NCBI GenBank assembly: GCA_965220325.1
Contig: OZ244821.1
Span: 1,179,428-1,243,427, forward strand
Length of the DNA: 64,000 nt
Source of the DNA: Candidatus Poribacteria bacterium
Lineage (GTDB): Bacteria; Poribacteria; WGA-4E; WGA-3G
Direction: 5' to 3'
Each line of letters starts with the position of its first letter. Within the stretch, counting starts at the first letter, position 1. The position numbers and the translations under genes are program-made. The notes below the pieces were generated by a model. That model was not told the DNA's origin, did not search any database, and saw only the letters and a program-made list of their open reading frames with translations. Below, piece after piece: positions 815 to 38,862 of this stretch.

Positions 815-904
815 GTAGGTATTTGATAACGCAAGTTGCCAGGGCGATTTAGTTTTCGGTTTTGGCTTGGGTTTTCGTTTACATAAGTTGATGTTTTCTT
901 ATGA

Positions 905-986: not shown

Positions 987-1004
987 CAAGTTGCCACCTT
1001 TTAT

Positions 1005-1080: not shown

Positions 1081-1490
1081 AAAATACTTGAAACCCTCAT
1101 TGAAGGACGCAGAAATACCCGAGCAAAACACGAAAATCTGTTAGTAGCAACTTGGGTTATTTGATAGCAGGACTTACGCACTTTTGACGATATGATGCTC
1201 CGTTAGCGGGTAAACTCTCAAAAAACAGAGGCGTTCTCAGTGCACAGGAGACCAACGGTTTCCTATGGTACAAAAGACCCACAGGCTAACAGCCTATGGT
1301 ACAAAAGAGCAACTTGGGTTATTTGATAGTATAAAACCTGTCAATACCAATTACGCAGTTTTTCTGAAAGAAACGGGAAGTTACTTTTGGACTATCTTTT
1401 ATCGGGGTAGACGTTTCTAATAGATAAGGGAAAATGGCCCGCTTATTTTTTATGGAACGGTTCGTCAGATAGACAAGGGAGGGATATACA

Positions 1491-2156: not shown

Positions 2157-2907
2157 CCTCTTGGCGTTGACAAAATACTTTGGTAAGTTATGTGCCGTTG
2201 ATGCGCTCACGTTGCAAGTAGCGGCAGGTGAGATATTCGGGTTTCTTGGACCCAATGGTGCAGGAAAGACAACAACCATCAATATGCTCACAGGCTTGCT
2301 CCGTCCGACATCTGGCACAGCGACCCTCGCCGGATACGACATTCAGAAACAAGGGCTCCAGGCAAAGGCGATTCTTGGGCTGATGCCGGATACCCCGCAG
2401 CTGTATGAAGCGTTGACGGGTAGGCAGTTTGTCCGTATGATCGCCGATCTATATGAGGTACCACCGAAACAAGCCGAAAATGAGATGGATAGCCTACTTG
2501 CACAACTTGAGCTTAACGATGCCGCGGATGATCAGATTAAAGGATATTCCTACGGTATGCAGAAGAAGATATTGCTTATCTCACTCCTCGTGCATCACCC
2601 GAAGATACTCTTTCTTGATGAACCTACCAGCGGTCTGGACCCGAGAAGTGCGCGTACCGTCCGCGAGATCTTGCGTCAACGTTGTGAACACGGATGCACG
2701 GTCTTCATGACAACACATATCCTCGAAATCGCGGAACGGATATGCGACCGCGTCGGTATCATTAGTAAGGGACGACTTATCGCTGTCGGGACGATAGCGG
2801 ACCTACAGCAGAGAAAGCGCGAAACCCATGCAGACCCTACCAGCGATAACCCGCAGCAGACCGAAACGTTGGAGGATATTTTCCTGGATCTAACGGCGGA
2901 TGCCTAA
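2149..2907 (+). CDS. ABC transporter ATP-binding protein
   Basis: Walker A GPNGAGKTTT, signature-like YSYGMQKK, Walker B ILFLDEPTSGLD. The GTG start overlaps the pspA stop by 8 nt. Confidence 0.85.
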   Translation: MINLLALTKYFGKLCAVDALTLQVAAGEIFGFLGPNGAGKTTTINMLTGLLRPTSGTATLAGYDIQKQGLQAKAILGLMPDTPQLYEALTGRQFVRMIADLYEVPPKQAENEMDSLLAQLELNDAADDQIKGYSYGMQKKILLISLLVHHPKILFLDEPTSGLDPRSARTVREILRQRCEHGCTVFMTTHILEIAERICDRVGIISKGRLIAVGTIADLQQRKRETHADPTSDNPQQTETLEDIFLDLTADA

Positions 2908-2966
2908 AACTCAGCAGTTAACTACGAACCGGTCTTGCTGATAGGCGAAAGCCGACGCCATTTCCC

Positions 2967-6736: not shown

Positions 6737-6987
6737 GGTGTGTCAATATTTCGTCAATTGTTTAGGACTTACGCATCCGGAAACCCTTTTGTAGCAAGTG
6801 GTTGTTGGTTGTTGGTAAGACAGGGCGATTTAGTTTTAAGAAATTATTGGGTTTCAGGTCTTTCTTTACAGATCCGGTTCGGTTAGGAAACCGAACCTAC
6901 CGTGCCTGGGTGGACGGTGTATTGTTAATGCGATATAAACTTTTAGAAATGGTATAACCTTACCGAACCGCAAGGAAAATTAAAAAT

Positions 6988-8328
6988 ATGGCAGTAGAAC
7001 TAAAAATGCTTCAGATGGATCAGACCATGACCAAAGGCAAAATCGGGAAATGGCTCGTTAAAGAAGGCGATACCGTCACCGAGGGACAACCCTTATTAGA
7101 GATTGAGACCGATAAGGTCGTCCATGAACAGGAGTCCCCTACCGACGGGATTATTGCCCAGATCCTTGCTGAAGAGGGCACCAATGTTCCCGTCAACGCT
7201 ATACTAGCTGTTATCGGTGCCCAAGGGGAAGAGGTTGCGCGCATTGAAGCGGACACCGCACCAGAGCAAGAGGTACAAGCGAAACCTGAACAACCGACAC
7301 CATCGCCTACCGGTGATGCACCGAAAGCCTCCCCAGCCGCGCGTCAACTTGCAGAGAAACTCGCTATCAACCTCACCGAAGTCAAACCATCCGGACCCGG
7401 TGGCCGTATCCTTGAAAGCGATGTCCAACGGTATATCGACTTGAGGGAACCGGTGCCTTCAGTTGAAACCCCGCGCCTTAAGGCATCTCCGCTCGCAAGG
7501 CGACTCGCGAAAGAGCAGGGTGTTAATCTCACTTCAATTGCCGGTTCTGGCCCCGAGGGTAGAATCGTCCGAGACGATGTGTTACAAGCCGCCAGTGCAG
7601 CCCCTGAAGTGCCTGTTGTAGAGACACCAGCGATTCAACAAGCAGCAGAAGTTATCGCTATGGACGGTATCCGCGGAATTATTGCGGAACGGATGACCCT
7701 CAGCGTTCAGACGAACGCCAGCGTCACGCTCCATACCGAGACTGACGCAACGGCACTTGTTGAATTGCGGGGGATGCTCAATGAGAAACTACAAGCAAGA
7801 GAGGTGAACATCACTTACACGGATCTGCTTGTGAAGGTCGTCGCAAACGCTTTACGGGAACATCCGCGACTCAATGCGACACTCACGGATGAAGGCATCC
7901 ATCTATTACCAGAAATTAACATCGGGGTTGCCGTCGCACTGGCGGATGGACTCGTGGTGCCGGTGGTTCGGAATGCTGATAAGGAGCGGTTATCGGAGAT
8001 TTCAGGACAGGTGAAAAATTTCGCTGAACGGGCACGGCGTAATCAACTAACACCTGGAGAACTTCAAGGTGGGACCTTTACGATTACGAATCTCGGAAAC
8101 TTCGGGATTGATGCGTTCACGCCGATCATCAATCCGCCGGAGAGTGCTATTCTTGGCGTAGGGCGGATTCTGAAGAAGCCAGTCGTCGATAACGATGAGA
8201 TTGTTATCCGAAGCATGTTGACGCTAAGTCTGACATTTGACCATCGTGTTGTAGATGGTGCACCTGCAGCGCAGTTCCTGCAAACAGTTTCTAACTATAT
8301 TCAGGATCCGTATCTGTTGTTGGTGTAG
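6988..8328 (+). CDS. dihydrolipoamide acyltransferase (E2 component of a 2-oxo-acid dehydrogenase complex)
   Basis: Lipoyl domain (LEIETDKV), two peripheral-subunit-binding domains (SPLARRLAKEQGVNLTSIAGSGPEGRI), and catalytic domain DHRVVDG. Confidence 0.85.
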   Translation: MAVELKMLQMDQTMTKGKIGKWLVKEGDTVTEGQPLLEIETDKVVHEQESPTDGIIAQILAEEGTNVPVNAILAVIGAQGEEVARIEADTAPEQEVQAKPEQPTPSPTGDAPKASPAARQLAEKLAINLTEVKPSGPGGRILESDVQRYIDLREPVPSVETPRLKASPLARRLAKEQGVNLTSIAGSGPEGRIVRDDVLQAASAAPEVPVVETPAIQQAAEVIAMDGIRGIIAERMTLSVQTNASVTLHTETDATALVELRGMLNEKLQAREVNITYTDLLVKVVANALREHPRLNATLTDEGIHLLPEINIGVAVALADGLVVPVVRNADKERLSEISGQVKNFAERARRNQLTPGELQGGTFTITNLGNFGIDAFTPIINPPESAILGVGRILKKPVVDNDEIVIRSMLTLSLTFDHRVVDGAPAAQFLQTVSNYIQDPYLLLV

Positions 8329-14101: not shown

Positions 14102-14407
14102 CTACACATCAGAACCGTTTTGTGGTACGCCGGGGGGCGGTTCTGTAAATTCCTCACTCCGCGCCGCCGCTTCTTTTCTTCGGCGATCCCATTCCACGAT
14201 TTCTTGATAAACTGCGGCCTTGCCTTCAGCAATGCCCTCGGCCTTGCCTTCAGCAATGCCCTCGGCTTTGGCAGCCTGAATCCGTTTTTCTCGCCTGTCA
14301 AGATACCAATCTGACAATAACATAATTACGTCAATGCCTCCTACTATCATTCCAGGATCATTCAATTCTCGATTTGGATATTGGTTTTGCTTTACGTAAG
14401 TGAACAC
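14102..14407 (-). CDS. hypothetical small protein with (AEGIAEGK) tandem repeats
   Basis: GTG start. C-terminal W..RRKEAA...E.F.EP.P tail is shared with 20812-21351. The N-terminal 16 codons are also found as a remnant at 21440-21497 next to a REP copy. Confidence 0.35.
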   Translation of the reverse strand: MFTYVKQNQYPNRELNDPGMIVGGIDVIMLLSDWYLDRREKRIQAAKAEGIAEGKAEGIAEGKAAVYQEIVEWDRRRKEAAARSEEFTEPPPGVPQNGSDV

Positions 14408-14414
14408 CCTTAGG

Positions 14415-14496
14415 AAAGATCGCGAGCGCAGCTCGCTCCTACAGGGGAGGAGTATTTACATAAACAAAGTGAATATGTAAAATTGAATGGTCCTGC
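14415..14496 (+). repeat. REP element copy
   Basis: AAAGATCGCGAGCGCAGCTCGCTCCTACAGGGGAGG...TTTACATAAACAAAGTGAATATGTAAA. Same family as 905-986. Confidence 0.6.
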
Positions 14497-14647
14497 TATG
14501 ATTCCGACTAAAACGCCACCAATAGGAATAAATGCCGAAATATCTTTTACGACATTCTGAACAGAGGGGTGTCCCTTCCAACCTTCTGCTATTTCATAAT
14601 CCACAGCGATGAAACCGTAGATGCTAACAAAAAACGAAATAAGGAAA

Positions 14648-14775
14648 AGTGCTCGCGATAAATATAACGACTCTTTTGTAGGAGCGAGCTGCGCTCGCGA
14701 TCTTCCTCATGCCATCGCGATCTTCCTCATGCCATCGCGATCTTCCTCATGCCATCGCGATCTTCCTCATTCCAT
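14648..14775 (-). repeat. inverted REP copy (TGTAGGAGCGAGCTGCGCTCGCGATC) plus a x4 tandem 20-mer (CATCGCGATCTTCCTCATGC) flanking the RAYT 3' end
   Basis: Reverse complement of the REP core, oriented opposite to the REP array on the other side of the RAYT gene. Confidence 0.55.
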
Positions 14776-15240
14776 CTCATATTTACATCGCCAAAATGGA
14801 TAATCCCGCGCAGCCTTTACCAATCCTGCTCTCACCGGGTTATGATAACAATATTCGATAATAGCGTTCAACGATTCATCCCGTCGAATACCGTGATCAT
14901 GGTAAGCAGGTTGCCAAATCGAACCGCTACGATCCAAACACGCATTAATCTGTTTCGCTGTGTGGCTTTTGAAGGACTGTATGAGTCTTGATAATGTTTG
15001 TTTACTGCCGAGTTGGATAACGGTGTGGATATGATCTGGCATCACACAGATACAAAACCATCTGAGTCGATCATTGGTTTCGAGCCAATCAAATGACTGA
15101 AAAATGATGTCAGCGATTTTGGGAGTTGCAAGCAGCGGTTTTTTCTTAAGTGTCGTAAGCGTGAGATAATAGTAGGTACCGGGTATGGAGTATCTGCCTT
15201 TACGGAGTTGTCGGTGTCCGCGGGTGGGTGTTCGTTGCAT
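14767..15240 (-). CDS. REP-associated tyrosine transposase (RAYT, IS200/IS605-like HuH transposase)
   Basis: 157 aa. HuH motif VMPDHIHTVIQL, SIWQPAYHDHGIR, and catalytic-Tyr region EYCYHNPVRAGLVKAARDYPFW, collinear with E. coli TnpA_REP. Flanked by inverted REPs. Confidence 0.9.
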   Translation of the reverse strand: MQRTPTRGHRQLRKGRYSIPGTYYYLTLTTLKKKPLLATPKIADIIFQSFDWLETNDRLRWFCICVMPDHIHTVIQLGSKQTLSRLIQSFKSHTAKQINACLDRSGSIWQPAYHDHGIRRDESLNAIIEYCYHNPVRAGLVKAARDYPFWRCKYEME

Positions 15241-15274: not shown

Positions 15275-15608
15275 GCCAAGATCGCGAGCACAGGGTCAAG
15301 ATCGCGAGCATAGTGCCAAGATCGCGAGCGACAAGAAACACCGTTTTTGCTTGGGCGTTTCTTGTAAGCAAAAACACTCGCTCCTACACAAGAGACGTTA
15401 GAATAATCGCGAGCACAGCTCGCTCCTACACAAGAGACGTTAGAATAATCGCGAGCACAGCTCGCTCCTACACAAGAGACGTTAGAATAATCGCGAGCAC
15501 AGCTCGCTCCTACACAAGAGACGTTAGAATAATCGCGAGCACAGCTCGCTCCTACACAAGAGACGTTAGAATAATCGCGAGCACAGCTCGCTCCTACACA
15601 AGAGGTGT
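15275..15608 (+). repeat. REP tandem array (about 7 units; five near-identical 42-bp units AATCGCGAGCACAGCTCGCTCCTACACAAGAGACGTTAGAAT)
   Basis: Direct tandem repeats with no spacers, so not CRISPR. The first units carry a 45-bp insertion in the hairpin loop identical to that in copy 21497. Confidence 0.65.
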
Positions 15609-15743
15609 TGAAGCATGTAAAAATGGTATAAGGCGCGAGTTGTTGGTCGAAACCGAAAGATTTTTTCGGAGAAAAAATCGTACCAACAACCAACAACCAA
15701 CAACCAACAACCAACAACCAATAACCCTTAAAAAAGCAAATAG

Positions 15744-15821: not shown

Positions 15822-18800
15822 TTATTGCAACGATTTTAGTTCACCCCATGTCGTTGTCGCTTTACCAGTAGGGGAGACATGACCACGAAGGTGTGTGACC
15901 TTTAGAACCTGGATATCACCATCAATGGAGACATCTTGGATCTGGTAGTAGTAGACGACATTGGGTTTCGCGGTCTTGTCAACGAACTCGTAAGCCGTAC
16001 GTTCGCTCGTTGTACCTTGACCTGCGATTAACTGCGTATTAAGTTTCGTGAATTGACCGTCTCGGGTGTCACTCCGGAGGATGTTGAATCCTGCGTTGTC
16101 CAACTCAGATTCGGTGATCCAACGGATAGCGACAGAACCGTCGTCAAGACGTGTCGGACGGAACGTTGATAGTTCAACAGGAAGGACACCACCAGCGTTA
16201 TGGCCAGGGCTGCCTTGATCACTCGTGTGCCCGTAAGAGGTCGCATCAAGCGTCCGACCTAACTGTTGACTCATATCGAAGAACTTCCAAGCATTCTTGT
16301 CCATTCCGTCAATCGGTCCCATAGTATCCGATACACGAACCAGAGAGATACGGTTGCTATTAGCGCCTATAGTGTTAGGCAGCATCCAACTGATTGGCAC
16401 GAAGGACTGACCGTTTGAACGACGATCATTTTCCGGTGCTGGACCGAGGTTACCAATCGTATCAACAGCGTGATAGACGCTATCCTTTTCCCACGCTTCA
16501 ACCTTTATCTGGAACCCGTAAGTATTCAGTAGCAACTGACTACCTCTCCTATTGACCGAATGGATACGTTCCTTAGGAAGCATGGTATTGTTGCGAGCCG
16601 AACGGGCAACAATCAGATACGACTGTCTCGGTGGGATAACATGATTCGGGAGCCTGAAGGATATAGTCAGATCACCATCGAATGAACCAACGCCACCATC
16701 GGCACTATCCATGTCGTGGTTCGTGACAGTGATTCTCCAACCCTGGACACTGACAGCCTCCGTACGAGATGTATTGAAGAGCTCAATCCACTCTGGCAGA
16801 TTTCGAGGTCCCTGGTCTATCATTATTTCGCTAACGATCACCGAGCTACGTGTGGTCGCATCGAATCTGTTATGTCTGGCATGTGCGCTATGCGGATGTC
16901 CCGGTGTGCCACCGTTCTGTGCATTCGGCTTGGCTTTCCGTTTATAACCAATACCCGACCAACCGTTATCATCATCACGGAAAGCAACCTTATCGCTGTT
17001 GTTGTTATTCTCTTTCGACTTGGTGCCATCAATATCCGCGTGTTGACGACGTTGAACCGTTCCCACTGTCAATTTGTTGTTCTCACGGTTAGGTGCTGGG
17101 AAGTTACTCAAAGGCCAGAGATTCGTGAACCGGGTGCCATCATCAACTTTCAGATTAGGGTGATAACCCGCGATGTCTCGGATGTTGTTATCGCCGGTAG
17201 AACCGTTCCGATCCTGGCGATTTCGCAGGACTAAGACGAAGTTACTATGGTCGTCCGGCAGTTCGTTGAAGGTGTGCGCAACCATATAACGTGCCGAATT
17301 CTCGTTAACACCAGGCACATAGTTGGCTTCACCGGGTTTCGCAACTGTCCACGTATTTCTGACACCGAAATTCCAACCCGCGGCTAACGGATGGTTCGGA
17401 TCGCCTGTCGGATCCTTCTTAACAACGAGCAGAATACCACCCGCAGGGACGTTCCGATCTGCAGTCGTGAAATCAATCAAGTCATCATCCTTATCTAAAC
17501 CGGTTATCATCGTGACTTCATAGTTCTTGAGGTTAACGTTACCACCAGAGACGTTACGCAGTTCAATCCATTCGTAATCTGGATTGTCGTGGTTAGCGAT
17601 CTCATTGAAGATGATTGGACCACGATTGGCGTTGGTTGTTCCGACGAGTTGAACGCCAGCACGTTCTTTTTGACCCGGTGTGCCTCTATGGTTCGTTGCA
17701 TAGAGCTCCGTCGATTTCGTCCAATGACCGGATTGATGTCCTGGTCCACCTCCATTGCTCCGGTACATAGAGATGAACTCTACCATACCAGTGACCATAC
17801 CACTGCCATCAGTGGCACCACTGTTACCGTTCTGACCTTTACCAAGCACCCAGTCATCACCAGCACCAACGACGTTACTGATACGGTCAGTCTCTTCGGC
17901 AAGTGCCGGACGCCTTGCTTGACTACTAATTTTTATAGCAGAAATCGCGAAGTTTTTATCAGATGTACGGTTGTGGAGTTCAATCCACTGTTCACCGAGG
18001 TACGCAGCTCTGTTATCAATCTGACCTTGGTCAACAGCCCACATAACTTCGCTGAAGACGACTTGCAGACGGGTCGCACCCGTAACTTTCACATTGATCG
18101 TACCGCCAATGTCAAACAACTCTTCCAGGTCCGGCATCTCTTCTTCATCTGATACCTCTGACCAACTCACCACATCAGGTGAGAGATTACCGAAAGATGG
18201 CGGACTGTCTTTATCACGGACGACGACGAGGTATTTACCGGCAGCAAGCATCGCTGCTGCTGGTGGTGTTTTTGCTGTGACTGTTTCCTTCATACCGGTT
18301 GCTTTCATTGCTGAAACACTAACTTCTACACTTGTCGCACCAGCAGTAGGCGTAATTTCTACAGTCCACATCGTGTCCATTGTGGCATCTGCCGTAGCTG
18401 GCATAGGTGTGCCAGCGGTACCGCCCATAACCATAATATCAGCCATTGCTAACTCGACTTTTTCAGAAAAGTTCAAGGTGACGGTAAACTTTTTATCAAC
18501 CGTGGCAGTAGAATCTGCCAAGATCGTTACAGTCGGTGGTGACTCGGCTGTGACTTCTAGCTCAGCACCAGTTGCTTCCTTTTCTGCGACATCAACTACT
18601 ACACTTGCCGCATCAAGAACAGGGCTAATTTCTACAGTCCACATCGTGTCCATTGTGGCATCTGCCGTAGCTGGCATAGGTGTGCCAGCTTCACCGCCCG
18701 TAACGATAATATCAGCCTTTTCTAACATAACTGGCTTATTGAATGTCAAGGTAGCAGTAAACTTTTTATCAACCGTGGCATCGGGAGCAGTGATTGTCAC

Positions 18801-19550
18801 TGTCGGTAGGGTTACCGGATCAAACATATCAACGATGGTGAACTTCTCTCTCATTGACGCGGAATTAGCTGTACCGTAGGTGGTCGTTCCATCAACAAGC
18901 CCGGTTGGGACAAACCCTGCCTCCGCATCCACGGTAACCCAGACATCTATCGGAAGATCAGAATCCTCACCAGTCTGATTACCAAAGAGGCTTAGACCTA
19001 CTCTAAATGTAGCGAAGAAAACCTTGCTTTGCACAGATTCGTCAACACCAGTAGTAGCGGTATCATCTGCTACGCCTGTAATCGCAACACTGACTGCACC
19101 GTCACCAGAAGTATCAGCATATAAATCCTTAGAAGGAGCTGATTGTGCTGCGGCAGTAACTGTAAGGTCAATGTCATCAGATTCTATACGAGAACCACCA
19201 CTTACAGCATCATATAGATGATCACTAAATGTGATCTTCGCTGTAAACACCCCAGCAACAGTACCATCCGCCGCAAATGCAATAGGAGTCGCGTCGGGAT
19301 CAACCACAAGCCTCACATTATTACCGTCTACGGTAGAACCCATAATATGATCCACCAATTCAATAGATTCGACGGTTGGTGCAGGCAGGTGCTGTGCATC
19401 GTGCGCAGCTTTAGTGAGCGTAGCACCACCAGTAGCGGCATGTTGAAGTCCAGCAGTCGTGCCATCAAGATCATGCGCCATGGCAGGTATCGCTGCAAGT
19501 GCGAAAATTAAAATTAAACTTGCTAAGGAAAATGTCAATCGATTTGACAT
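15822..19550 (-). CDS. large secreted protein with three lamin-tail (LTD) domains and duplicated Ig-like modules
   Basis: Signal peptide MSNRLTFSLASLILIFALAAIPAMA. LTD motifs (...EWIELRN..., ...EWIELFN..., ...EQWIELHN...). Duplicated roughly 100 aa module TATLTFNKPVMLEKADIIVTGGEAGTPMPATADATMDTMWTVEI. C-terminus is ...GKATTTWGELKSLQ. Confidence 0.75.
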   Translation of the reverse strand: MSNRLTFSLASLILIFALAAIPAMAHDLDGTTAGLQHAATGGATLTKAAHDAQHLPAPTVESIELVDHIMGSTVDGNNVRLVVDPDATPIAFAADGTVAGVFTAKITFSDHLYDAVSGGSRIESDDIDLTVTAAAQSAPSKDLYADTSGDGAVSVAITGVADDTATTGVDESVQSKVFFATFRVGLSLFGNQTGEDSDLPIDVWVTVDAEAGFVPTGLVDGTTTYGTANSASMREKFTIVDMFDPVTLPTVTITAPDATVDKKFTATLTFNKPVMLEKADIIVTGGEAGTPMPATADATMDTMWTVEISPVLDAASVVVDVAEKEATGAELEVTAESPPTVTILADSTATVDKKFTVTLNFSEKVELAMADIMVMGGTAGTPMPATADATMDTMWTVEITPTAGATSVEVSVSAMKATGMKETVTAKTPPAAAMLAAGKYLVVVRDKDSPPSFGNLSPDVVSWSEVSDEEEMPDLEELFDIGGTINVKVTGATRLQVVFSEVMWAVDQGQIDNRAAYLGEQWIELHNRTSDKNFAISAIKISSQARRPALAEETDRISNVVGAGDDWVLGKGQNGNSGATDGSGMVTGMVEFISMYRSNGGGPGHQSGHWTKSTELYATNHRGTPGQKERAGVQLVGTTNANRGPIIFNEIANHDNPDYEWIELRNVSGGNVNLKNYEVTMITGLDKDDDLIDFTTADRNVPAGGILLVVKKDPTGDPNHPLAAGWNFGVRNTWTVAKPGEANYVPGVNENSARYMVAHTFNELPDDHSNFVLVLRNRQDRNGSTGDNNIRDIAGYHPNLKVDDGTRFTNLWPLSNFPAPNRENNKLTVGTVQRRQHADIDGTKSKENNNNSDKVAFRDDDNGWSGIGYKRKAKPNAQNGGTPGHPHSAHARHNRFDATTRSSVIVSEIMIDQGPRNLPEWIELFNTSRTEAVSVQGWRITVTNHDMDSADGGVGSFDGDLTISFRLPNHVIPPRQSYLIVARSARNNTMLPKERIHSVNRRGSQLLLNTYGFQIKVEAWEKDSVYHAVDTIGNLGPAPENDRRSNGQSFVPISWMLPNTIGANSNRISLVRVSDTMGPIDGMDKNAWKFFDMSQQLGRTLDATSYGHTSDQGSPGHNAGGVLPVELSTFRPTRLDDGSVAIRWITESELDNAGFNILRSDTRDGQFTKLNTQLIAGQGTTSERTAYEFVDKTAKPNVVYYYQIQDVSIDGDIQVLKVTHLRGHVSPTGKATTTWGELKSLQ

Positions 19551-19867
19551 AGATTATTTTCCTCCAAAATGTAAAAAGAAAAAACAGTGTTAAGTCTCGC
19601 TTCTTTAAAGTGAGCGAAAACTTCCATTCAACAGTCGAATGGATTCAGGGAAGTAAACCCATTCTGAAACAATAAACTAACCTTTTTGGTGCGTAGGTGC
19701 GTTGTCCGCAACGCTACGCTTTTGTGTCAAATTTTACGGAGGTAATGACGACTCATCCGAGAGACTGTTTTTGGCGAGAGGCTGTTTCAAGCGAATCTCC
19801 CGAATTAAACCTCAAATATACATTAAGACGTTTTATTTTATCGAAAGTTACAACAATTTTGCCTTAA

Positions 19868-20650
19868 TTTACTAATATTATACAAAATTAATTGTATTAA
19901 GTCAAATTTATTTGCGTTTTTTTGAATAAAAAACCATTTTTATCGGCAATTACACAAAATATTATCAATTTAATTAACAGTTAGCCGAAATTTACGAAAC
20001 TATATGCGTAGTAAACCCATTTATATTTTGTTTAATCGTGAATTATGTTTATTTTTTACCAAATACATTAATATTATACGAAATAAATTGTATTAAGTCA
20101 AATTTATTTGTGTTTTTTTTGAATATAATCGGATATTTCTCGGTTTTTTGGGGGCGTTTGGGGGATTTGTATTGCGTTTGGGTGGTATTTTGGAGGTGGT
20201 ACAAATACAAAGACCACAGGCTAACGGTCTCCTATGCTACAAAGATTCGGAATTTTTTATTGTTGTTTAGAGAGATGGTACAAATACAAAGACCACAGGC
20301 TAACGGTCTCCTATGCTACAAAGATAGCGTATCGTAGGTTGGGTTGAACGGATGCGACCAAACCGCTGGGAAGCTATAGGTTTGCACGTAGAAGCCGGTT
20401 CGGTTGGGAAACCGAACCTACCAGGACGGGGTCGGACCAGGACGGGATCGGAAGTGTGGGTAGGTTTTTAACCCGAAACACGCGCTGGATGCACACTCTT
20501 TTCAGGGTTCCCTAGGCCTTGAAACGTGATGCACGGCGCGTGTTGGCGGGTGTTTTTGTTTTCTTTGGAGGAGAATAACATCTTCCTCACACTTTAATTA
20601 TACGCTAAAATTTAAAATTAAGTCAAATTTATTTTGTTTTTTGAAAAGAT
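19868..20650. repeat. three copies of an AT-rich repeat (ATTATACRAAATNAATTGTATTAAGTCAAATTTATTTGYGTTTTTTTGAATA) in a non-coding AT-rich tract
   Basis: Copies at about 19868-19935, 20066-20135 and 20590-20650. No credible ORF in 19560-20800. Confidence 0.5.
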
Positions 20651-20811
20651 CGGCATAGGAATAGGAGATAGGTTTGTAGCATAGAAGACTGTTGGCAGGC
20701 ATTTCCGAAGCCCTGAAAAGCCATGATTCAAACAGTAATTGATAAAGTATCTATCCATTCCACTCAAACCGAGGTAATTGGCGAAGGTATTGGTCTAGTA
20801 TACGCATATAG

Positions 20812-21351
20812 TTAATTCGGCTGCTGCTCAGCAGGAGATGGTTCGTCAAAGGGTTCACCCGCAGCTTCAGCTGCTTCTTTTCGCTTGAACCATTCAATCC
20901 ATGCTTGATTTGCCATCTGGAACCCCTCGGCTTTGCCCTCGGCTTTGCCTTCCGCTTTGCCCTCGGCTTTGCCCTCGGCTTTGCCCTCGGCTATACCTTC
21001 CGCTATACCTTCCGCTTTACCCTCGGCATAAACTCGGTCTCTAAATAACTTTGCATACCCAAACATGATTTCCTCCAGTATATGTGAAAAAATGAAAAAG
21101 AAGCCAACAATCAACGCCATCAGAACAGACGTTCGCGTTAATAACGTTCCACCTAATGCCTCCAACCTCCAACCAAAGAGAACTTCAAGTAATAGATTCA
21201 GTATTACAAGACTTGAAAAAATCCGAGCGAATACATAGAACCATTTTCGCGGGATCCGGACTAACGATACATAGTCCTTATCATTTGATGCCATCAACTG
21301 AAACATCCTTTCAAAATAGGGCGTGATAAAAGGTGCAATACACAGGACCAT
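20812..21351 (-). CDS. small membrane protein with C-terminal (AEGK)n repeat tract
   Basis: Three predicted TM helices, then AEGKAEGIAEGIAEGKAEGKAEGKAEGKAEGKAEG from 12-bp tandem repeats, then a W..KRKEAAEAAGEPFDEP tail paralogous to 14102-14407. Confidence 0.5.
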   Translation of the reverse strand: MVLCIAPFITPYFERMFQLMASNDKDYVSLVRIPRKWFYVFARIFSSLVILNLLLEVLFGWRLEALGGTLLTRTSVLMALIVGFFFIFSHILEEIMFGYAKLFRDRVYAEGKAEGIAEGIAEGKAEGKAEGKAEGKAEGKAEGFQMANQAWIEWFKRKEAAEAAGEPFDEPSPAEQQPN

Positions 21352-21377
21352 CGCTTTACTTTCATGTTGATATGTTA

Positions 21378-21407
21378 ATTATAATTCAGCGTGGATAGAG
21401 ATGTCAA
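21378..21407 (-). promoter_or_regulatory. sigma70-type promoter (TTGACA-N18-TATAAT) for 20812-21351
   Basis: Minus-strand TTGACATCTCTATCCACGCTGAATTATAAT, about 27 nt upstream of the start codon. Confidence 0.45.
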
Positions 21408-21496
21408 GGATTTTTTTATCAAGATTTTGATGCAGGGCCATTCAATTCTCGATTTGGATATTGGTTTTGCTTTACAGAGGTGAACATTCTTACGGA

Positions 21497-21621
21497 AAAT
21501 CGCGAGCGTGAAGAAACACCGTTTTTGCTTGGGCGTTTCTTAAGCAAAAACACTCGCTCCTACCGGGGAATCATATTCACAGATATAAAGTGAATAGGTA
21601 CAATTGAATGGCCCTGATAGT
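21497..21621 (+). repeat. REP copy with 45-bp hairpin-loop insertion
   Basis: CGCGAGCG[TGAAGAAACACCGTTTTTGCTTGGGCGTTTCTTAAGCAAAAACAC]TCGCTCCTAC...TTCACAGATATAAAGTGAATAGGTACA. The insert is itself a hairpin (GTTTTTGCTT/AAGCAAAAAC). Confidence 0.6.
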
Positions 21622-21866
21622 ATATTACTAAACTTTGGACAATTTTAGGTGCGATACACATGTCGCCCCGCTGGGGCTTAGACCTTGGGAGACCTGACGT
21701 TTCTATAAACATACCGCCCCGCTGGGGCTGCTCTTTAGTTCATTCGTGTTTATTTTCTTGTGAGTTGGGTTTGCATGAAAAACTTTTAGAAAAATCGGAA
21801 ATACTTCGGAAATAGGTCATGAACTCAACAGAAATTGTCCAAACTATAGTAGTATATTATCAAAAA
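21618..21866 (+). mobile_element. MITE-like element (about 250 bp) with terminal inverted repeats ACTAAACTTTGGACAATTTT / AAATTGTCCAAACTATAG and a paired-hairpin core
   Basis: Homologous over its whole length to 23735-23972 in the same orientation. The core is GCCCC-GCT-GGGGC x2. Confidence 0.55.
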
Positions 21867-21885
21867 TGTCCGAAAATGACAATGC

Positions 21886-21912
21886 AAAATTCTATATTGT
21901 CAAAATTGCGTA
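21886..21912 (+). promoter_or_regulatory. palindrome TGACAAT-N13-ATTGTCA plus direct repeats AATTCTATATTRTCAAAA upstream of fic, a possible operator
   Basis: Located 40-60 nt upstream of the Fic start in an AT-rich leader. Confidence 0.3.
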
Positions 21913-21948
21913 AAAATGATAATATAGAATTCTATATTATCAAAAACA

Positions 21949-23091
21949 GTGAAAAATAATAATATGAAAAAGTTTATAGCAGGCGAATACAGACAACAGA
22001 GAGAATATAAGAGTTTTACACCGTCCCTCGTAAACCGCTATTTTGTTTGGGAAGACCCACAGATAAATATTCTAATGGCAAGGGCAATGCAGCTCTTAGG
22101 AGAGTTAAATGCTTATGCCGAACTCATACCAGATGTAGATTTCTTCATTCAAATGACAATTACGAAAGAAGCTCGAGATTCAAATCTGCTTGAAGGGACG
22201 AGAACCGAACTTGATGAAGTTGTTCTTCCGCACACGGAAATTCCGCCGACCAGACGCGGTGATAGACAAGAGGTTCAAAATTATATTGAAGCGATGAATT
22301 TCGCAATAGCCGAACTTCCAAAAATTCCGATTTCGATGCGACTTCTCAAGGATGTACATAAAATACTACTTTCCGGTGTTCGCGGAAAACACAAGGCACC
22401 CGGTGAAATTCGCAGAAGTCAAAACTGGATTGGCGGTTCCTCGGTTTCTGATGCTTTTTTCGTTCCACCTTCTCCAGAAGAAGTCCCAGATCTTTTAAGT
22501 GATTTGGAGAAATTTTGGCACAACCGATCCCTGCAAATTCCGGAACTGATTAAAATCGCTATCACACATTATCAGTTTGAGACCATTCACCCCTTCCTTG
22601 ATGGAAACGGTAGGTGCGGGAGACTGTTAATCGTCTTGCAACTCATTGATGCAAAGATACTTGAGAAGCCGGGGCTTTATGTATCTACTTTTTTTCAGAG
22701 ACATAAAGATGCGTACTATGATTCACTTACTACGGTCCGTAAATTGAATAAATTAGATCAATGGATATTGTTTTTCTTAGAAGGAATCGCTGATGCTGCC
22801 AAGGATACAAGAGAAACGTTCAAGTCGATTACTGCGCTTCGTCAAGAATATGATACAGCGATTTTTACCTTGGGTTCTCGGGCAAAGAACGCTCAAAAAT
22901 TACTACTTTTTATGTACTCCCAACCGATTGTTAACGTAAATTGGGTTGCAACGGAATTAAACATAAACTATCCAACCGCGAACCGTCTCCTAAAATGTTT
23001 GACAGAACTTGACATACTAAAGGAAATTACGGGATACTCGCGTAATCGCTTTTTTGTCTTGGAGAAATACCTGAACCTCTTCAGAAGTTAG
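21949..23091 (+). CDS. fic: Fic family protein (class II, intramolecular inhibitory helix), probable AMP-transferase
   Basis: Canonical HPFLDGNGRCGRLL (HPFx[DE]GNGR) motif. The inhibitory motif SNLLEG ([ST]xxxE[GN]) lies N-terminal to the core. C-terminal wHTH-like region. Confidence 0.85.
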   Translation: MKNNNMKKFIAGEYRQQREYKSFTPSLVNRYFVWEDPQINILMARAMQLLGELNAYAELIPDVDFFIQMTITKEARDSNLLEGTRTELDEVVLPHTEIPPTRRGDRQEVQNYIEAMNFAIAELPKIPISMRLLKDVHKILLSGVRGKHKAPGEIRRSQNWIGGSSVSDAFFVPPSPEEVPDLLSDLEKFWHNRSLQIPELIKIAITHYQFETIHPFLDGNGRCGRLLIVLQLIDAKILEKPGLYVSTFFQRHKDAYYDSLTTVRKLNKLDQWILFFLEGIADAAKDTRETFKSITALRQEYDTAIFTLGSRAKNAQKLLLFMYSQPIVNVNWVATELNINYPTANRLLKCLTELDILKEITGYSRNRFFVLEKYLNLFRS

Positions 23092-23233
23092 CGGATTTCA
23101 GGCAAGCACTTTGATATCCTTGTACAGTACAGCCCGTTGATGCGTCGCACGCATTTCCGAAGCCGTGAAAAGCCATGATTCAAACAACAATTGACAAAAT
23201 ATTTACGCCCCGCTATGGATAACAGATATAAAT

Positions 23234-23262
23234 TTGACAAACTTACACATCTTTTGTATAAT
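23234..23262 (+). promoter_or_regulatory. consensus sigma70 promoter TTGACA-N17-TATAAT
   Basis: TTGACAAACTTACACATCTTTTGTATAAT, about 45 nt upstream of ORF 23308. Confidence 0.5.
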
Positions 23263-23307
23263 TACAATACACAAATAATAGATGCTCATAGAAAGGAGTG
23301 TTAAACT

Positions 23308-23508
23308 GTGAATGAAAATTTGGATTTCTCCGAGAAGCAGAAGGAATTTTTAAGAGATTTGCTCGGAGAAACTTTTTTACCTCTCGAAAGAAGGGTGAAT
23401 AGAGCACTCAATCGTTATGACCTTGTATCCGAGCATGTATTAAATCTTGACCGTGTTATCACTGAGGCAATTACAAGACTTGAGAATAACCTTAATGATA
23501 GCCATTGA
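23308..23508 (+). CDS. small hypothetical protein (66 aa, helical), possible Fic-associated partner
   Basis: GTG start 10 nt after GAAAGGAG Shine-Dalgarno, with a perfect upstream promoter. No homology recognised. Confidence 0.35.
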   Translation: MNENLDFSEKQKEFLRDLLGETFLPLERRVNRALNRYDLVSEHVLNLDRVITEAITRLENNLNDSH

Positions 23509-23734
23509 CTACTTCAGTCGATGGCTATTGTCTTTTCTAAACCTCTATACTATCTTTGATAAAGCGAATATGTAAAACTATAACGGATTTCAAAATTAAT
23601 GAGACCCTTTACAAGCGGACGAGGGAACCTCGCCCCTACAAGGGGTGGTCTCGGCAATCACTGAAATGTCTCTTTAATTATTGACTTTACTATAAATGCC
23701 CCTGATGGCCATGCTTTTTTTCGCTTGACTTTAC

Positions 23735-23972
23735 ATTATACTATAGTTTGGACAATTTTTGCGCAATAAACATGCCGCCCCTACGGGGCTTAGATTCGTG
23801 GCGGATGCCGTTTCTATAGACATATCGCCCCTACGGGGCTGCGTATCGGTGCATCGGCATTTATTTTTCTACGAGTTGCGTTTGTATCTGTAACACTCAG
23901 AAAATCCGAGAATGTGGTGGAAACAATGCCTGATCTGGATAGAAACTGTCCAAACTTTAGTACATTATATAT
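23735..23972 (+). mobile_element. second copy of the MITE-like element (TIRs TATAGTTTGGACAATTTTT / AAACTGTCCAAACTTTAG)
   Basis: Direct-orientation homolog of 21618-21866. Hairpins GCCCC-TAC-GGGGC x2. Confidence 0.55.
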
Positions 23973-24093
23973 AAGGCATGATTTATAGTAGGTGTTTTCA
24001 ATTTTGTAGATGCGTTTAAACACATCTATTTCTCCATAATATCATGTCGTTCAAATAGAATCAACGCTCTTTCAAGTTATACCCTTTTGATTT

Positions 24094-25191
24094 ATGAAAA
24101 TTCGAGATATTAAAGTCTATCAAGTGGATCTGCCGCTTTATGAAGGCAGCTACAACTGGTCCGGCGGAAAATCTGTTTCCGTTTTCGACAGTACGATTGT
24201 CTCCGTTGAAACAGACGAAGGTATTACCGGCTACGGTGAAGTCTGTCCGTTGGGACCGTTCTATCTGCCTGCTTACGCCACCGGTGCACGTACCGGTATC
24301 GCTGAACTTGCACAGCACCTCATCGGTGAAGACCCGACGCAACTCCTCCCGCTCAACCGACAGATGGACATCGCACTCAAGGGGCATCCGTACGTGAAAT
24401 CTGCAATCGACATGGCGTGCTGGGATATCCTCGGGAAAGCTTCAAACGCATCTATCTGCACGCTTCTCGGTGGGCGGTATGGCGAGGACTTCATGCTCTA
24501 TCGCGCGATCTCACAGGAATCGCCTGACGAGATGGCGGCGAAGGTTGCAACTTACCGGGCGGAGGGGTACCGTAAATTCCAGTTGAAAGTCGGCGGGGAT
24601 CCAAATACCGATATCGAACGTATCCACGCTGTCGCCGAGTTGATGGAATCGGGAGATGTGCTGATCGCGGATGCAAACACGGGGTGGTTGATGCACCAAG
24701 CTGCTCGCGTCGTCCGAGGTGTGAGCGATGTGGATGTCTATATCGAGCAGCCCTGTCTCTCATACGAAGAGTGCCTCGCCATCCGTCAGCGGACCGACCA
24801 CCCCTTTGTTCTCGATGAGACCATCGACGGCATCCACGCCTTATTACGCGGTCATGCCGACCGGGCGATGGATGTTGTGAATATCAAGATTAGCAAATTC
24901 GGCGGATTGACCAAAGCGAAACTCGCCAGAGACCTCTGCGTTGAACTCGGCGTAGCGATGACGATTGAAGACAGCTGGGGCGGCGATATTACAACCGCCG
25001 CGATTGCGCATCTGGCACACAGCACACCGCCAGAATTCCTTTTCACAGCGACGGATTTCAACAGTTATGTCACTGTCAGCACGGCGGAAGGCGCGCCGCA
25101 ACGGGTTAACGGCAGGATGGCAGCGTCAACGCAACCAGGTTTGGGGATTACACCGAAGATGGGGGTGTTGGGTGAAGAGCGGAAGAGGTGA
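24094..25191 (+). CDS. mandelate racemase/muconate lactonizing enzyme family (enolase superfamily) protein
   Basis: MR/MLE N-terminal capping domain plus barrel with metal-ligand region. 365 aa. Confidence 0.8.
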
Positions 25192-25270
25192 AGAGGGAAG
25201 GATGGAAGGCGGAAAGATGGAAGAGGGGAGGATGGAAGACCGGAGGATGGAAGAGGGGAGGCGGGAAGTT

Positions 25271-26236: not shown

Positions 26237-26309
26237 TTAGGACTTACGCATGCGGCTCTTTCGTACCACAAACTTTATGAAGATTAAATAAATATTTGGG
26301 TAATCGTTA

Positions 26310-26388
26310 AAGATCGCGAGCGCAGCTCGCTCCTACAGGGAAGAAGTATTTACATAGATAAAGTGAATATGTAAACTAAATACCCCTA
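26310..26388 (+). repeat. REP element copy
   Basis: AAAGATCGCGAGCGCAGCTCGCTCCTACAGGGAAGAAGTATTTACATAGATAAAGTGAATATGTAAA, immediately 3' of the LamG-protein gene. Confidence 0.6.
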
Positions 26389-29144: not shown

Positions 29145-30511
29145 GGCAGTACAAACTTTCCGAGGATTTTCCGAACAGATGCCCCTGTCGCTGAAGGCAG
29201 GTTCCCCGCATTTCCGTGGAGCGTCTCATTCGCCAGAATCGCGAACGCGATCGCCTCCTTCGCATCCGCTGAGATACCAGAGGTGTTCACAGGTTCAACT
29301 GTCGTGTTTTCCAATACTTCGCTCAACCGTTGCATGAGGGTCTGATTGTGGACACCGCCGCCACTCACATAAAGCACGTCTATCGGATTTTGTCCCGCTA
29401 TAAATTGTGCGATGTAGCCGGTAATCGTTTGGACCGTCAACTCGGTCAGTGTCGCGATGCAGTCGTTATCTGAAAGTGTGCGCTTCCGGCAAGCTGTGAG
29501 ACATTCCATCGCATAATTGCGTCCAAACATCTCACGTCCAGTCGTTTTTGGCGGTGGCAGATGGAAAAACGGGTGCTTCAACCATTCGTCAATGATCGGT
29601 TGGTGCGGCGTACCCTGCGCGGCACGCTGCCCCGCTGCGTCATACCGTTCTGTCCCTTCCGTGATCTCTGTTATGACAGCGTCAATACACATATTGCCGG
29701 GCCCCGTATCCGCGGCACAGACAGTATCGAATGCGCCATTTGCCGGAAGCACCGTGAGATTCGCAATCCCGCCGATATTCAAGAGTCCGACTGTTTCAGT
29801 GCTGTTGTGGAACAGCAGATAATCTGGGTATGATACCAACGGTGCACCTTGTCCGCCTGCTGCCATATCCGCGACGCGGAAATCCGCTATCGTTGGAATC
29901 CCTGTTTCGTGTGCAATGACTGCAGGCTCCCCAATCTGCAATGTCGATGACAGGGTGGAAGGGTGGAAGGGTGGAAGGGTGGAAGGGATTGGAAGGGATT
30001 GGAAGGATGGAAGGGCGGAAGGATGGGGGGGATTGGAAGGGTGGATGGGTGGAAGGGTGGAAGGGATTGGAAGGGATTGGAAGGATGGAAGGGCGGAAGG
30101 ATGGAGGGGATTGGAAGGATGGAAGGGTGGAAGGGTGGAAGGGATGTTTGGGTCTTTCGGGAGGTGATGGATCGTTTGGCCGTGTGAACCGATGAGGTCA
30201 ATATCGCTGGTAGACATTTCGCTTTTTTGTAGGATGTGTTTAACTGCCTCAGCGAAGAGGTATCCGATATAGAAATTCATTTCACAGATGTCGTCAACAC
30301 GACCCGTATCGGGTTGACAGAGCGCAAGGATACGTTGTGGCACGCCAGATGGAAACGGAACAGTCTCAAAAGCGATCAGGTCTACTTTAGTTTCCAAACC
30401 GTGTCCGACAATTTCGACAATAGCAGCATCAATGCCGTCAACTGAGGTACCGGACATTAACCCGATAACCAATTTTTTATCTTTCTTGAGAAGTTCAAAA
30501 AAATGTTTCAT
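29141..30511 (-). CDS. anmK: anhydro-N-acetylmuramic acid kinase with an in-frame roughly 65 aa Pro-rich repeat insertion
   Basis: GLMSGTSVDGIDAAIVEI..., GSHGQTIHH..., TLQIGEPAVIAHETGIPTIADFRVADMAAGGQGAPLV are collinear with E. coli AnmK. The insert TLPPFHPSNPLHPSALPSFQSLPIPS... is encoded by CCTTCC repeats. Confidence 0.85.
   Translation of the reverse strand: MKHFFELLKKDKKLVIGLMSGTSVDGIDAAIVEIVGHGLETKVDLIAFETVPFPSGVPQRILALCQPDTGRVDDICEMNFYIGYLFAEAVKHILQKSEMSTSDIDLIGSHGQTIHHLPKDPNIPSTLPPFHPSNPLHPSALPSFQSLPIPSTLPPIHPSNPPHPSALPSFQSLPIPSTLPPFHPSTLSSTLQIGEPAVIAHETGIPTIADFRVADMAAGGQGAPLVSYPDYLLFHNSTETVGLLNIGGIANLTVLPANGAFDTVCAADTGPGNMCIDAVITEITEGTERYDAAGQRAAQGTPHQPIIDEWLKHPFFHLPPPKTTGREMFGRNYAMECLTACRKRTLSDNDCIATLTELTVQTITGYIAQFIAGQNPIDVLYVSGGGVHNQTLMQRLSEVLENTTVEPVNTSGISADAKEAIAFAILANETLHGNAGNLPSATGASVRKILGKFVLP
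29938..30172. repeat. (GGAAGG[GA]TGG)n microsatellite block lying inside the anmK reading frame
   Basis: GGGTGGAAGGGTGGAAGGGTGGAAGGGATTGGAAGG... on the plus strand. Same repeat family as 6337-6400, 25192-25268, 33215-33300 and 38805-38850. Confidence 0.6.
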
Positions 30512-38803: not shown

Positions 38804-38862
38804 AGATTGGAAGATTGGAAGATTGGAAGGGTGGAAGAGGGGAAGAAAGGTAGATCGGAACG

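Follow-up and report, generated by a model that had tools for sequence, protein, structure and literature searches.

[quoted passage not shown] CccR of Yersinia pseudotuberculosis acts on palindromes at the -35 and -10 boxes of its own promoter to repress it (PMC9755527), and SoFic of Shewanella oneidensis binds to the 100 bp immediately preceding its gene (bioRxiv 10.64898/2026.07.09.737422). For the repeats around such a gene, the relevant precedents are the bacterial MITEs derived from DDE insertion sequences, such as QMITE2 of Coxiella and MITE Aba12 of Acinetobacter, which have been reviewed together with the MITE pairs reported to flank and mobilise class 1 integrons in Acinetobacter and with the standing of MITEs as recombination hotspots (PMC10969869).

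Here we analyzed a 64-kb stretch of the Candidatus Poribacteria chromosome (the window), in which an initial sequence-only reading had picked out an AT-rich island with a fic gene and a small ORF bracketed by two MITE-like elements, and had proposed a MITE-mobilised or composite cassette. The AT-richness is real (Table 1), and synteny with relatives breaks at the island, resuming at 24094 in relatives with MR_MLE. With a probability of about 0.85, however, the island is part of a long intergenic stretch of the chromosome where mobile-element debris has accumulated, and not a single mobile unit. Since the MITE pair is not one gene-moving cassette, the finding is a largely ordinary one.

Table 1. 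Features of the island, in window coordinates.
Feature	Position	Strand	Details
AT-rich island	19560-24060		GC 0.393 versus 0.479 across the 64-kb window
AT-rich promoter modules (predicted)	19857-20642	-	three copies of TTGACT-17/18-TATAAT, all leftward, 11/12 matches each
Two 54-nt repeats, 98% identity	20193-20325	-	terminator-like hairpin each, 20232-20209 and 20311-20288
59-bp direct repeat copy 1	20695-20753	+	
179-aa ORF	20812-21351	-	(AEGK)n repeat
179-aa ORF promoter (predicted)	21407-21378	-	12/12 match
MITE-2 copy	21433-21616	+	TIR CAGGGCCATTCAATT, 15/15 inverted repeat; different family from MITE-1
MITE A left target-site duplication	21618-21627		TAGTATATTA, 10-mer, identical to 21850-21859
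MITE-1 copy A	21628-21849	+	TIRs CTAAACTTTGGACAATTT and AAATTGTCCAAACTATAG; two GCCCC-GCT-GGGGC hairpins, 51 nt apart
MITE A right target-site duplication	21850-21859		overlaps first fic operator half-site
fic promoter-operator array	21853-21963	+	~3 units of 40 bp, 26-bp palindrome TGAYAATATAGAATTCTATATTRTCA per unit
fic	21964-23091	+	375 aa, class II Fic with C-terminal wHTH
59-bp direct repeat copy 2	23147-23205	+	88% identity to copy 1
Small-ORF sigma-70-type promoter (predicted)	23234-23262	+	12/12 consensus match
66-aa ORF	23308-23508	+	truncated copy of 95-aa Poribacteria gene
Terminator-like hairpin after 66-aa ORF	23495-23531		
Third short repeat family copy	23592-23697	+	CCCCTACAAGGGG hairpin; BLAST matches in L050, L056, L062, L071
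MITE B left target-site duplication	23732-23740		TACATTATA, 9-mer, identical to 23961-23969
MITE-1 copy B	23741-23960	+	TIRs CTATAGTTTGGACAATTT and AAACTGTCCAAACTTTAG; two GCCCC-TAC-GGGGC hairpins, 50 nt apart
MITE B right target-site duplication	23961-23969		

The fic gene is present as claimed, except that it starts at ATG 21964 and not at GTG 21949; every homologue is 375 aa long, and the databases hold a 375-aa protein 100% identical to the product. The translation contains the active-site motif HPFLDGNGRCGR and the inhibitory motif SNLLEG, Pfam returns Fic_N and Fic matches plus a weak HTH match, and SoFic 3EQX (E = 4e-35, residues 41-373) is the PDB entry that matches best over the wHTH. 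The earlier assignment to class II, the N-terminally auto-inhibited Fic proteins, was correct, and the enzyme would be held in check by its own N-terminal helix. In the leader, a palindrome described as TGACAAT-N13-ATTGTCA does exist at 21877-21902, although its spacer is N12 and it forms part of a tandem repeat with 40-bp units (TRF period 40, 2.9 copies, 21853-21970). Promoter-like TTGTCA-17-TAATAT sites, one of them at 21897-21925, straddle neighbouring units, such that the palindromes would overlap the -35 and -10 boxes of fic. The array is kept upstream of fic in L001, L087, L088/L089 and L095, with two to six units, and travels with the gene. Among more distant fic homologues, 42 of 76 have a palindrome with ≥10 matched pairs in the 90 nt preceding the gene, against 4 of 65 control windows. 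The palindromes in the leader agree with the way in which members of the Fic-wHTH group are known to autorepress and, by analogy with CccR and SoFic, a Fic dimer may bind them and repress its own transcription; binding by this particular Fic is putative.

Both bracketing elements are true MITEs, i.e. non-autonomous transposons, as the first reading had suspected. The copies, A and B, are homologous over their whole length of ~220 bp, lie in the same orientation and have a terminal inverted repeat (TIR), CTAWASTTTGGACARTTT, and two GC hairpins. Aligned end to end they show 79% column identity pairwise; the family alignment, counting gaps, gives 68%. For the TIR core AGTTTGGACAATTT there are four occurrences at ≤1 mismatch and seven at ≤2, against 0.72 expected, and for the hairpin CGCCCC-NNN-GGGGCT there are four, against none expected. 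The ranges initially given, 21618-21866 and 23735-23972, took in flanking target duplications, and the limits are now exact (Table 1). A search for target-site duplications, which had been suggested as a check, found a perfect one for each element separately (10 bp for A, 9 bp for B). Together with the existence of a multi-copy Poribacteria family, these duplications bear out the MITE-like nature of the pair.

Within this family, which we call MITE-1, a two-TIR pattern search of fetched loci returned 79, 76 of them in Candidatus Poribacteria and the remaining three chance matches. Exact 8-10-bp flank duplications were found at fixed ends in 39 of 82 copies, or 43 if the ends were allowed to shift by ≤3 nt, and further copies show duplications with one mismatch. 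No IS701-like transposase is encoded within the 64-kb window. A candidate autonomous partner was found in a relative, L084 (17531-18930), where a 1.4-kb insertion sequence with MITE-1 ends and a 9-bp TAACATTTA duplication disrupts a WD40 gene. The 425-aa protein that it encodes reaches 190 bits against NF049999 ('IS701 family transposase', cut-off 170), and a second copy of this type of insertion sequence, 73% identical, is present in L005. MITE-1 and this insertion sequence have their ends and their 8-10-bp AT-rich target duplications in common, and the IS701-family transposase of the latter presumably mobilises MITE-1 in trans. Literature searches combining Poribacteria with MITE terms, whose single hit was a comparative-genomics paper on Shewanella, found no description of the family.

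Other repeats crowd the island. Its repeats had been called private, but several of its segments belong to repeat families that other Poribacteria also have; the exception is a direct repeat first described as 55 bp at 20693 and 23143, which is real but 59 nt long and 88% identical between copies (Table 1), and for which the Poribacteria loci fetched gave no match. The 59-bp repeats bracket the segment from the 179-aa ORF, whose family matches reflect only low-complexity sequence, through fic. A threefold AT-rich ~65-mer was confirmed as two 67-nt copies, 85% identical (19857-19923 and 20053-20119), although the third is shorter (20617-20642). These modules are predicted to be sigma-70-type promoters on the minus strand, with hexamer pairs at 19905-19877, 20101-20073 and 20626-20597.

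How fic came to lie here can be approached from its relatives. DNA homology to L001, L087, L088 and L089 is limited to 21854-23092, which comprises the ORF and the 40-bp operator repeats, and these four loci have a common gene order, GFO-MoxR-fic-...-N6_N4_Mtase-ResIII. In L001, L087, L088 and L095, where the Fic proteins are 76-91% identical to ours, fic is downstream of MoxR with no adjoining MITE, which speaks against a composite cassette. The downstream Mod and Res genes are visible on three long contigs among the four relatives examined; in L095, with the 91% identical Fic, fic is preceded by the 3' end of MoxR and by four operator units. MoxR, MTase and ResIII are all absent from the 64-kb window. 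Here the operator-fic module of 1.24 kb stands alone at a new place, beside a MITE-2 copy that has lost its target duplication, and we infer that a rearrangement moved it.

One possible, if rather doubtful, elaboration is that the module left the MoxR locus through recombination or an aberrant event at this MITE-2 copy, or through the 59-bp repeats, with the MITE-1 copies inserting later; this would add a mechanism to the debris reading and not replace it. The MITE-2 copy ends one base upstream of the left duplication of MITE A, 12 bp from the element itself, and it alone among the four full-length copies in the window lacks a target duplication, those at 840-990, 14353-14500 and 61114-61326 having duplications of 9-11 bp. 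Homology to the ancestral fic loci starts within ~240 bp of the MITE-2 end, or ~10 bp once MITE A is removed, and a hotspot role for MITEs would fit. However, neither a second MITE-2 half nor a reciprocal junction was seen, the right junction at 23092 has no recognisable repeat, and the support is circumstantial and comes from a single locus.

A less probable proposal is that the conserved MITE double hairpins have been domesticated as terminators, insulators or host-factor sites that isolate fic transcription from its neighbours. Over 50 distinct copies the stems are 97-99% paired; 11 copies show a double change from C-G to U-A, and divergent ones carry other variants (GCACC/GGTGC, GCTCC/GGAGC). 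Several unrelated families of repeats carry the hairpin motif too, in the window always on the plus strand, and the second hairpin of MITE A scores as terminator-like. Yet the stems are just 5 bp long and have no U-tract, the covariation score is barely above that of shuffles, 19 of 500 of which equal or exceed it, the compensatory change may reflect one inherited event, and insertion sites elsewhere are unlinked to fic.

It is very improbable that A and B are the ends of a 2.3-kb composite transposon that brought in fic and the small ORF, even though the copies have the same orientation, bracket fic with intact outer TIRs, have integron-mobilising counterparts, and surround a gene at a non-ancestral site. 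Each copy has its own perfect duplication, so that the two result from separate insertions, and the outer flanks of the pair, TAGTATATTA and TACATTATA, differ. The copies also fall into different MITE-1 subfamilies in the family alignment, A being closest to copies in L035 and L030 (89% identity) and B to a copy in another genome, L050 (98.6%), in contrast to the identical pairs of Acinetobacter. Similarity to other fic loci ends at the operator array and the stop codon, short of the MITEs, and the small ORF is of separate origin. As judged from the sequences, then, A and B appear to be separate insertion events, A at the upstream border of the operator array and B ~130 bp upstream of a mandelate-racemase-like gene. 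A reconstructed pre-insertion junction of copy A had no match in a metagenome scan.

The 66-aa ORF does have the promoter ascribed to it (Table 1). Its homologues are 95 aa long, and it is truncated because of a 116-bp internal deletion: window positions 23288-23493 match L091 7981-8186 at 91%, and 23493-23563 match L091 8303-8373. In other genomes the 95-aa gene neighbours an IS1595 transposase, and the 5-8 kb fetched to each side contain no fic; the ORF is probably a decayed remnant of an unrelated IS1595-linked unit. That it is the antidote of a toxin-antitoxin pair, as the suggestion of a Fic partner would have it, is scarcely credible: it is small, looks well expressed and lies ~220 bp downstream of fic, but it lacks the (S/T)xxxE(G/N) motif and any Pfam or NCBIfam match, it is missing from the relatives' fic loci, and this Fic has its own inhibitory helix. 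Class II Fic proteins require no separate antitoxin.

Set against described systems, MITE-1 resembles other DDE-derived MITEs in its ~220-bp non-coding body with 18-nt TIRs, its target duplications of 8-10 bp, its high copy number per genome, its choice of AT-rich intergenic targets and its same-ended autonomous insertion sequence. It is unlike them in that only the TIRs are common with the parent element and in that its core has an internal 50-nt duplication with a GC hairpin, a module present also in a family with other TIRs (window 826-1165). The L084 element is like the IS701 family in passing NF049999, in its DDE_5 and DDE_Tnp_1 domains, and in its 1.4-kb length with a single ORF. Classic IS701 members make 4-5-bp target duplications, whereas the 8-10-bp duplications seen here are nearer IS4-family behaviour. 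A same-orientation MITE pair around an accessory gene recalls the MITE-flanked class 1 integrons of Acinetobacter; those have one duplication around the entire unit, and here each diverged copy has its own. The fic product scores 173 on NF046030, far under the equivalog cut-off of 550. The fic operator, a 26-bp palindrome every 40 bp in two to six copies, also differs from one 10-bp inverted-repeat pair 26 bp apart. Still, the gene resembles those of CccR, for which autorepression is experimental, and SoFic, for which upstream binding is, in its N-terminal inhibitory motif, HxFx(D/E)GNGRxxR active site, C-terminal wHTH and palindromes over its own promoter.

The AT-rich island at 19560-24060 is made up of two separate MITE insertions, a relocated class II fic gene, a remnant of an insertion sequence and a number of repeats with promoters or hairpins. 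The sequence-only reading described these parts accurately, but it over-reached in taking them for a MITE-mobilised or composite cassette built around fic. The island (GC 0.393, against 0.479 for the window) is bounded on the left by a minus-strand gene for a 1242-aa protein with an LTD domain (15822-19550) and on the right by a pair of MR_MLE and ornithine cyclodeaminase (OCD) genes starting at 24094.

The two elements on either side of fic, copies A and B of a family termed here MITE-1, had been called homologous and MITE-like, and both descriptions hold. They align end to end, have terminal inverted repeats (TIRs) and dispersed copies, lack a transposase gene (the ORFs that overlap them are 44-69 aa long and due to chance), and have an autonomous relative with matching ends. 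Target-site duplications, which that reading had proposed to look for, were found as a perfect repeat directly flanking each element (10/10 positions matching for A, 9/9 for B). Within the window, 0.72 matches to the TIR core with up to two mismatches would be expected and seven are present; for the hairpin CGCCCC-NNN-GGGGCT the expected number is 0 and the observed number four.

Coordinates of repeats, candidate transcript and ORFs in and around the island (window positions)
Feature	Position	Strand	Details
MITE-1 copy A	21628-21849		target-site duplication TAGTATATTA at 21618-21627 and 21850-21859
MITE-1 copy B	23741-23960		target-site duplication TACATTATA at 23732-23740 and 23961-23969
MITE-2, full-length copies	840-990, 14353-14500, 21433-21616, 61114-61326	+ (all)	TIR CAGGnCnATTyAnTT
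MITE-2, partial copy	26284-26379	+	
Fourth MITE-like element	826-1165		TIRs ATAACGCAAGTTGCCAC and GTAGCAACTTGGGTTAT; MITE-2 copy nested inside
CYCC-TAC(N0-2)-GGRG hairpins	1015, 1065, 14436, 21557, 23633, 23778, 23828, 61264	+	
Candidate GC-rich transcript, ~300 nt	20280-20626	-	11/12 promoter at 20626-20597; terminator-like hairpins at 20311-20288 and 20232-20209
179-aa ORF	20812-21351	-	
fic	21964-23091	+	375 aa
66-aa ORF	23308-23508		

Copies A and B are members of a MITE family that extends across the phylum. A search with the pattern TTTGGACARTTT-N170-200-AAAYTGTCCAAA, limited to one genome per species, returned at least 79 loci, at least 76 of them in Poribacteria and with several copies per genome; the three matches outside the phylum share no internal similarity and were discarded as chance. 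A and B are 220-222 bp long. MITE-1 elements end in 18-nt TIRs, in which positions 7-14 and 16-18 are invariant among 50 distinct copies. When CTAWAG is taken as the fixed end, exact repeats of 8-10 bp flank 39 of 82 elements, and this number rises to 43 if the ends may shift by up to 3 nt; allowing one mismatch adds more. These flank repeats are rich in A and T, and many have the form TA...TA. An alignment of 52 copies shows, besides the invariant TIR cores, a conserved central part in which two hairpins lie 50 nt from each other; the stems of these hairpins are 97-99% paired. A double change from C-G to U-A is found in 11 copies and other compensated stem variants in divergent ones, with a covariation score barely above that of shuffled alignments.

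The autonomous relative is a 1.4-kb element at 17531-18930 of L084, one of the numbered loci that were fetched from other genomes. It has MITE-1 ends (CTAAAGTTTGGACA... and ...TGTCCAAACTATAG), is flanked by a 9-bp duplication (TAACATTTA) and splits a WD40 gene. Its 425-aa product scores 190 bits with the NCBIfam IS701 model (cut-off 170) and contains DDE_5 and DDE_Tnp_1 domains. Another insertion sequence, in L005, is 73% identical and has the same TIRs; it shows no clear duplication and was rejected as a second clean example. The L084 insertion sequence and MITE-1 have only the TIRs in common, and no transposase of the L084 type is encoded within the 64-kb window. This enzyme is a putative mobilizer of MITE-1 in trans. 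L084 has several other transposase genes (DDE_Tnp_1, DDE_3) within 20 kb (749-4328 and 17556-21104); the load of insertion sequences is high in some Poribacteria genomes. The literature searched seems to contain no description of MITE-1 and its IS701-type parent from Poribacteria, although they are elements of a standard kind and change nothing in how MITEs or Fic enzymes are at present understood. An apparently undescribed MITE family that is common throughout the phylum, with its parent of the IS701 family, should aid repeat annotation and assembly in these uncultured sponge symbionts.

The tempting view of a MITE-based transposon with a toxin gene as its cargo proved to be wrong. Transposition by the outer ends would leave a single duplication around the whole unit; here A and B are each flanked by a duplication of their own, and the outermost flanks do not match, so that A and B do not delimit one composite unit. 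The two copies are only 68% identical to each other with gaps counted. The identity is 89% between A and copies in one other genome, and 98.6% between B and a copy in a further genome, the sites being unrelated; A and B therefore belong to different subfamilies. Nor does fic occur as one unit between MITEs in the loci compared: no MITE-1 TIR adjoins the gene in L001, L087, L088-L090 or L095, and DNA homology between the window and the fic loci of relatives is limited to 21854-23092, comprising the operator repeats and the ORF. The predicted empty sites would read GGCCCTGA-TAGTATATTA-TCAAAAATG for A and GACTT-TACATTATA-TATAAGG for B, the former with no match in a metagenome scan. An integrative genomic island can also be set aside. 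There is no tRNA or tmRNA gene in the window and no integrase among the three island ORFs, and the sole flanking direct repeat is a 59-mer.

The best 120 homologues listed for the Fic protein are 72-100% identical, and all those with a named source are from Poribacteria. Relatives at 84%, 80% and 76% identity are encoded in a conserved block with the order GFO, MoxR, fic, variable small genes, N6_N4 methyltransferase and ResIII helicase (L001 7795-17528, L087, L088-L090), and a 91% relative on a 1.4-kb contig is preceded by the 3' end of MoxR and four operator units. This block may be a defence locus; in L088, Cas10 and RAMP genes are also found upstream. No homologues of MoxR, Mod or Res are present within the window. 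Among genomes with MR_MLE relatives (87-92% protein identity), the common part is MR_MLE-OCD only; synteny starts at 24094, the relatives themselves have AIM24 directly upstream, and the left side of the island has no counterpart in any of those compared. The MoxR-Mod-Res setting in relatives, its absence here and the MR_MLE synteny from 24094 together place fic at a derived site. Nothing that we found ties the MITE-1 copies to this move. A copy of a second family, MITE-2, adjoins the left duplication of A and is the sole one of the four full-length window copies without a duplication, a circumstantial hint of a rearrangement at 21433-21616.

The 66-aa ORF downstream of fic had been suggested as a possible Fic partner. 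Two very large protein searches each returned only seven relatives, four of which are 95 aa long. Window 23288-23493 corresponds to 7981-8186 of one relative's locus (L091) at 91% identity and 23493-23563 to L091 8303-8373; from this split alignment it can therefore be deduced that a 116-bp deletion took away the last 33 codons. Downstream of the 95-aa gene in L091/L092 and L094 comes a transposase gene of the IS1595 type in convergent orientation, and there is no fic nearby. The gene and the transposase form a 1.66-kb block (L091 7794-9456, L094 7794-9468; 74% identity) in two different genomic contexts, so that the block is probably an insertion sequence with a small accessory gene. With such IS1595-linked relatives and no fic near them, the 66-aa ORF is not a Fic partner; it has its own promoter, lacks an inhibitory motif and is of unrelated origin. 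A class I system, in which the Fic toxin is paired with an antitoxin of its own as in VbhT/VbhA or FicT/FicA, was likewise rejected, as no motif-bearing, co-transcribed small partner was found.

The rest of the island consists largely of promoter and hairpin repeats. Each of its three AT-rich repeats is a minus-strand promoter of the sigma-70 type (11/12 match), and terminator-like hairpins on that strand lie in two 54-nt repeats. The candidate GC-rich transcript folds somewhat better than shuffled sequences (z = -2.9), has no Rfam match and contains a REP-like hairpin (GGTTCGGTTGGGAAACCGAACC) with copies elsewhere; parts of it are short hairpin repeats that recur in other Poribacteria loci and at 6874-6915. 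No Rfam family reached its gathering score anywhere in the window, and the sole weak match in the island (Acido-Lenti-1, one hairpin, E = 7.5) was taken as chance. Segment 23592-23697 is a member of another repeat family. Nothing in the fetched loci matches the 59-bp repeat pair, which was rejected as the end of an IS1595-like unit, since it is not similar to L091 or L094. The family matches of the 179-aa ORF (Yae1_N, FliH) involve low-complexity sequence only; a paralogous fragment, 52% identical to its C-terminal (AEGK/AEGI)n-plus-tail region, lies at 14132-14281 on the minus strand, and both the ORF and the fragment adjoin a MITE-2 copy.

Other repeat families are spread over the window. 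MITE-2, copies of which are also found in L019, L038, L066, L072 and L074, is flanked by duplications of 9-11 bp (CGCAAGTTGC, CTATCATTC/CTATGATTC and CTATCTTTTCT). The fourth MITE-like element has in its core the two-hairpin module of MITE-1, with hairpins at 1015 and 1065, and its end sequence abuts MITE-1 copies in L042, L045, L050, L067 and L079. A 50-nt hairpin module (TTTCTATAGACATnTCGCCCC-NNN-GGGGC) is thus common to MITE families with different terminal repeats. The motif CYCC-TAC(N0-2)-GGRG occurs eight times in the window, against 0.33 expected, in at least four repeat families and always on the plus strand, and there may be an orientation bias in this small sample (n = 8); related hairpins are found in other Poribacteria repeat families. 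We consider it improbable that the 50-nt module is a functional cis element, captured repeatedly by different transposon ends and spread through Poribacteria, including beside fic. In that case, its role might be to bind a host factor or to signal recombination or termination in a strand-specific way. A CRISPR-like mini-array can be dismissed, as there are only two hairpin units, inside an element bounded by TIRs and duplications and copied genome-wide. Outside the island, a 117-bp repeat (92% identity; 56141-56257 and 60903-61019) lies on either side of a gene for a 1462-aa repeat protein, each copy with a GATGTTrGGACArTTT...AAATTGwCCCAACATC palindrome and, after it, a TTGACT-17-TATAAT promoter on the minus strand, of the type seen in the AT-rich island repeats. 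Short G/A-rich tandem repeats of the GGAAGG(G/A)T type (25166-25266, 29948-30197, 38794-38834) are found at gene boundaries, including the MR_MLE/OCD spacer, and near-perfect arrays of 42-nt and 20-nt units near 15.4 kb and 14.7 kb (15335-15651, 14690-14789).

The fic product itself is by its sequence a class II Fic-wHTH protein of the SoFic/CccR type, the class II form having its inhibitory motif in the same chain, N-terminal to the active site (bioRxiv 10.64898/2026.07.09.737422). It contains Pfam Fic_N and Fic domains (Fic at E = 4e-19), the motif HxFx(D/E)GNGRxxR as HPFLDGNGRCGR and, in the Fic_N region, the inhibitory motif (S/T)xxxE(G/N) as SNLLEG. Residues 41-373 align with SoFic (3EQX), including the wHTH region; there is a weak HTH_13 match at residues 319-367, and SoFic-like_C (PF21248) is recorded in close relatives. 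The fic leader is a 40-bp repeat in 2.9 copies with a 26-bp palindrome per unit, and promoter-like TTGTCA-17-TAATAT sites span adjacent palindromes; relatives have 2-6 such units. The Poribacteria fic thus travels with an operator array of variable copy number. A metagenome scan with the Fic protein returned only homologues from outside Poribacteria, at 49-63% identity and from many environments (L096-L175). In 42 of 76 of these, a palindrome with at least 10 matched pairs lies within 90 nt upstream of the start; the same holds for only 4 of the 65 control windows and for 7 of the 76 shuffles. These palindromes are lineage-specific, 26-34 bp long and located just before the start codon. The sequences suggest that the operators co-evolve with the wHTH domain, and they extend to many distant homologues an autorepression design of the kind recently described for Fic-wHTH proteins. 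CccR represses its own promoter via inverted repeats close to the -35 and -10 boxes (PMC9755527), and SoFic binds the 100-bp stretch that precedes its gene (bioRxiv 10.64898/2026.07.09.737422). As in these systems, the fic leader of the window has palindromes over its own promoter, through which, by analogy with CccR and SoFic, the gene would be autorepressed.
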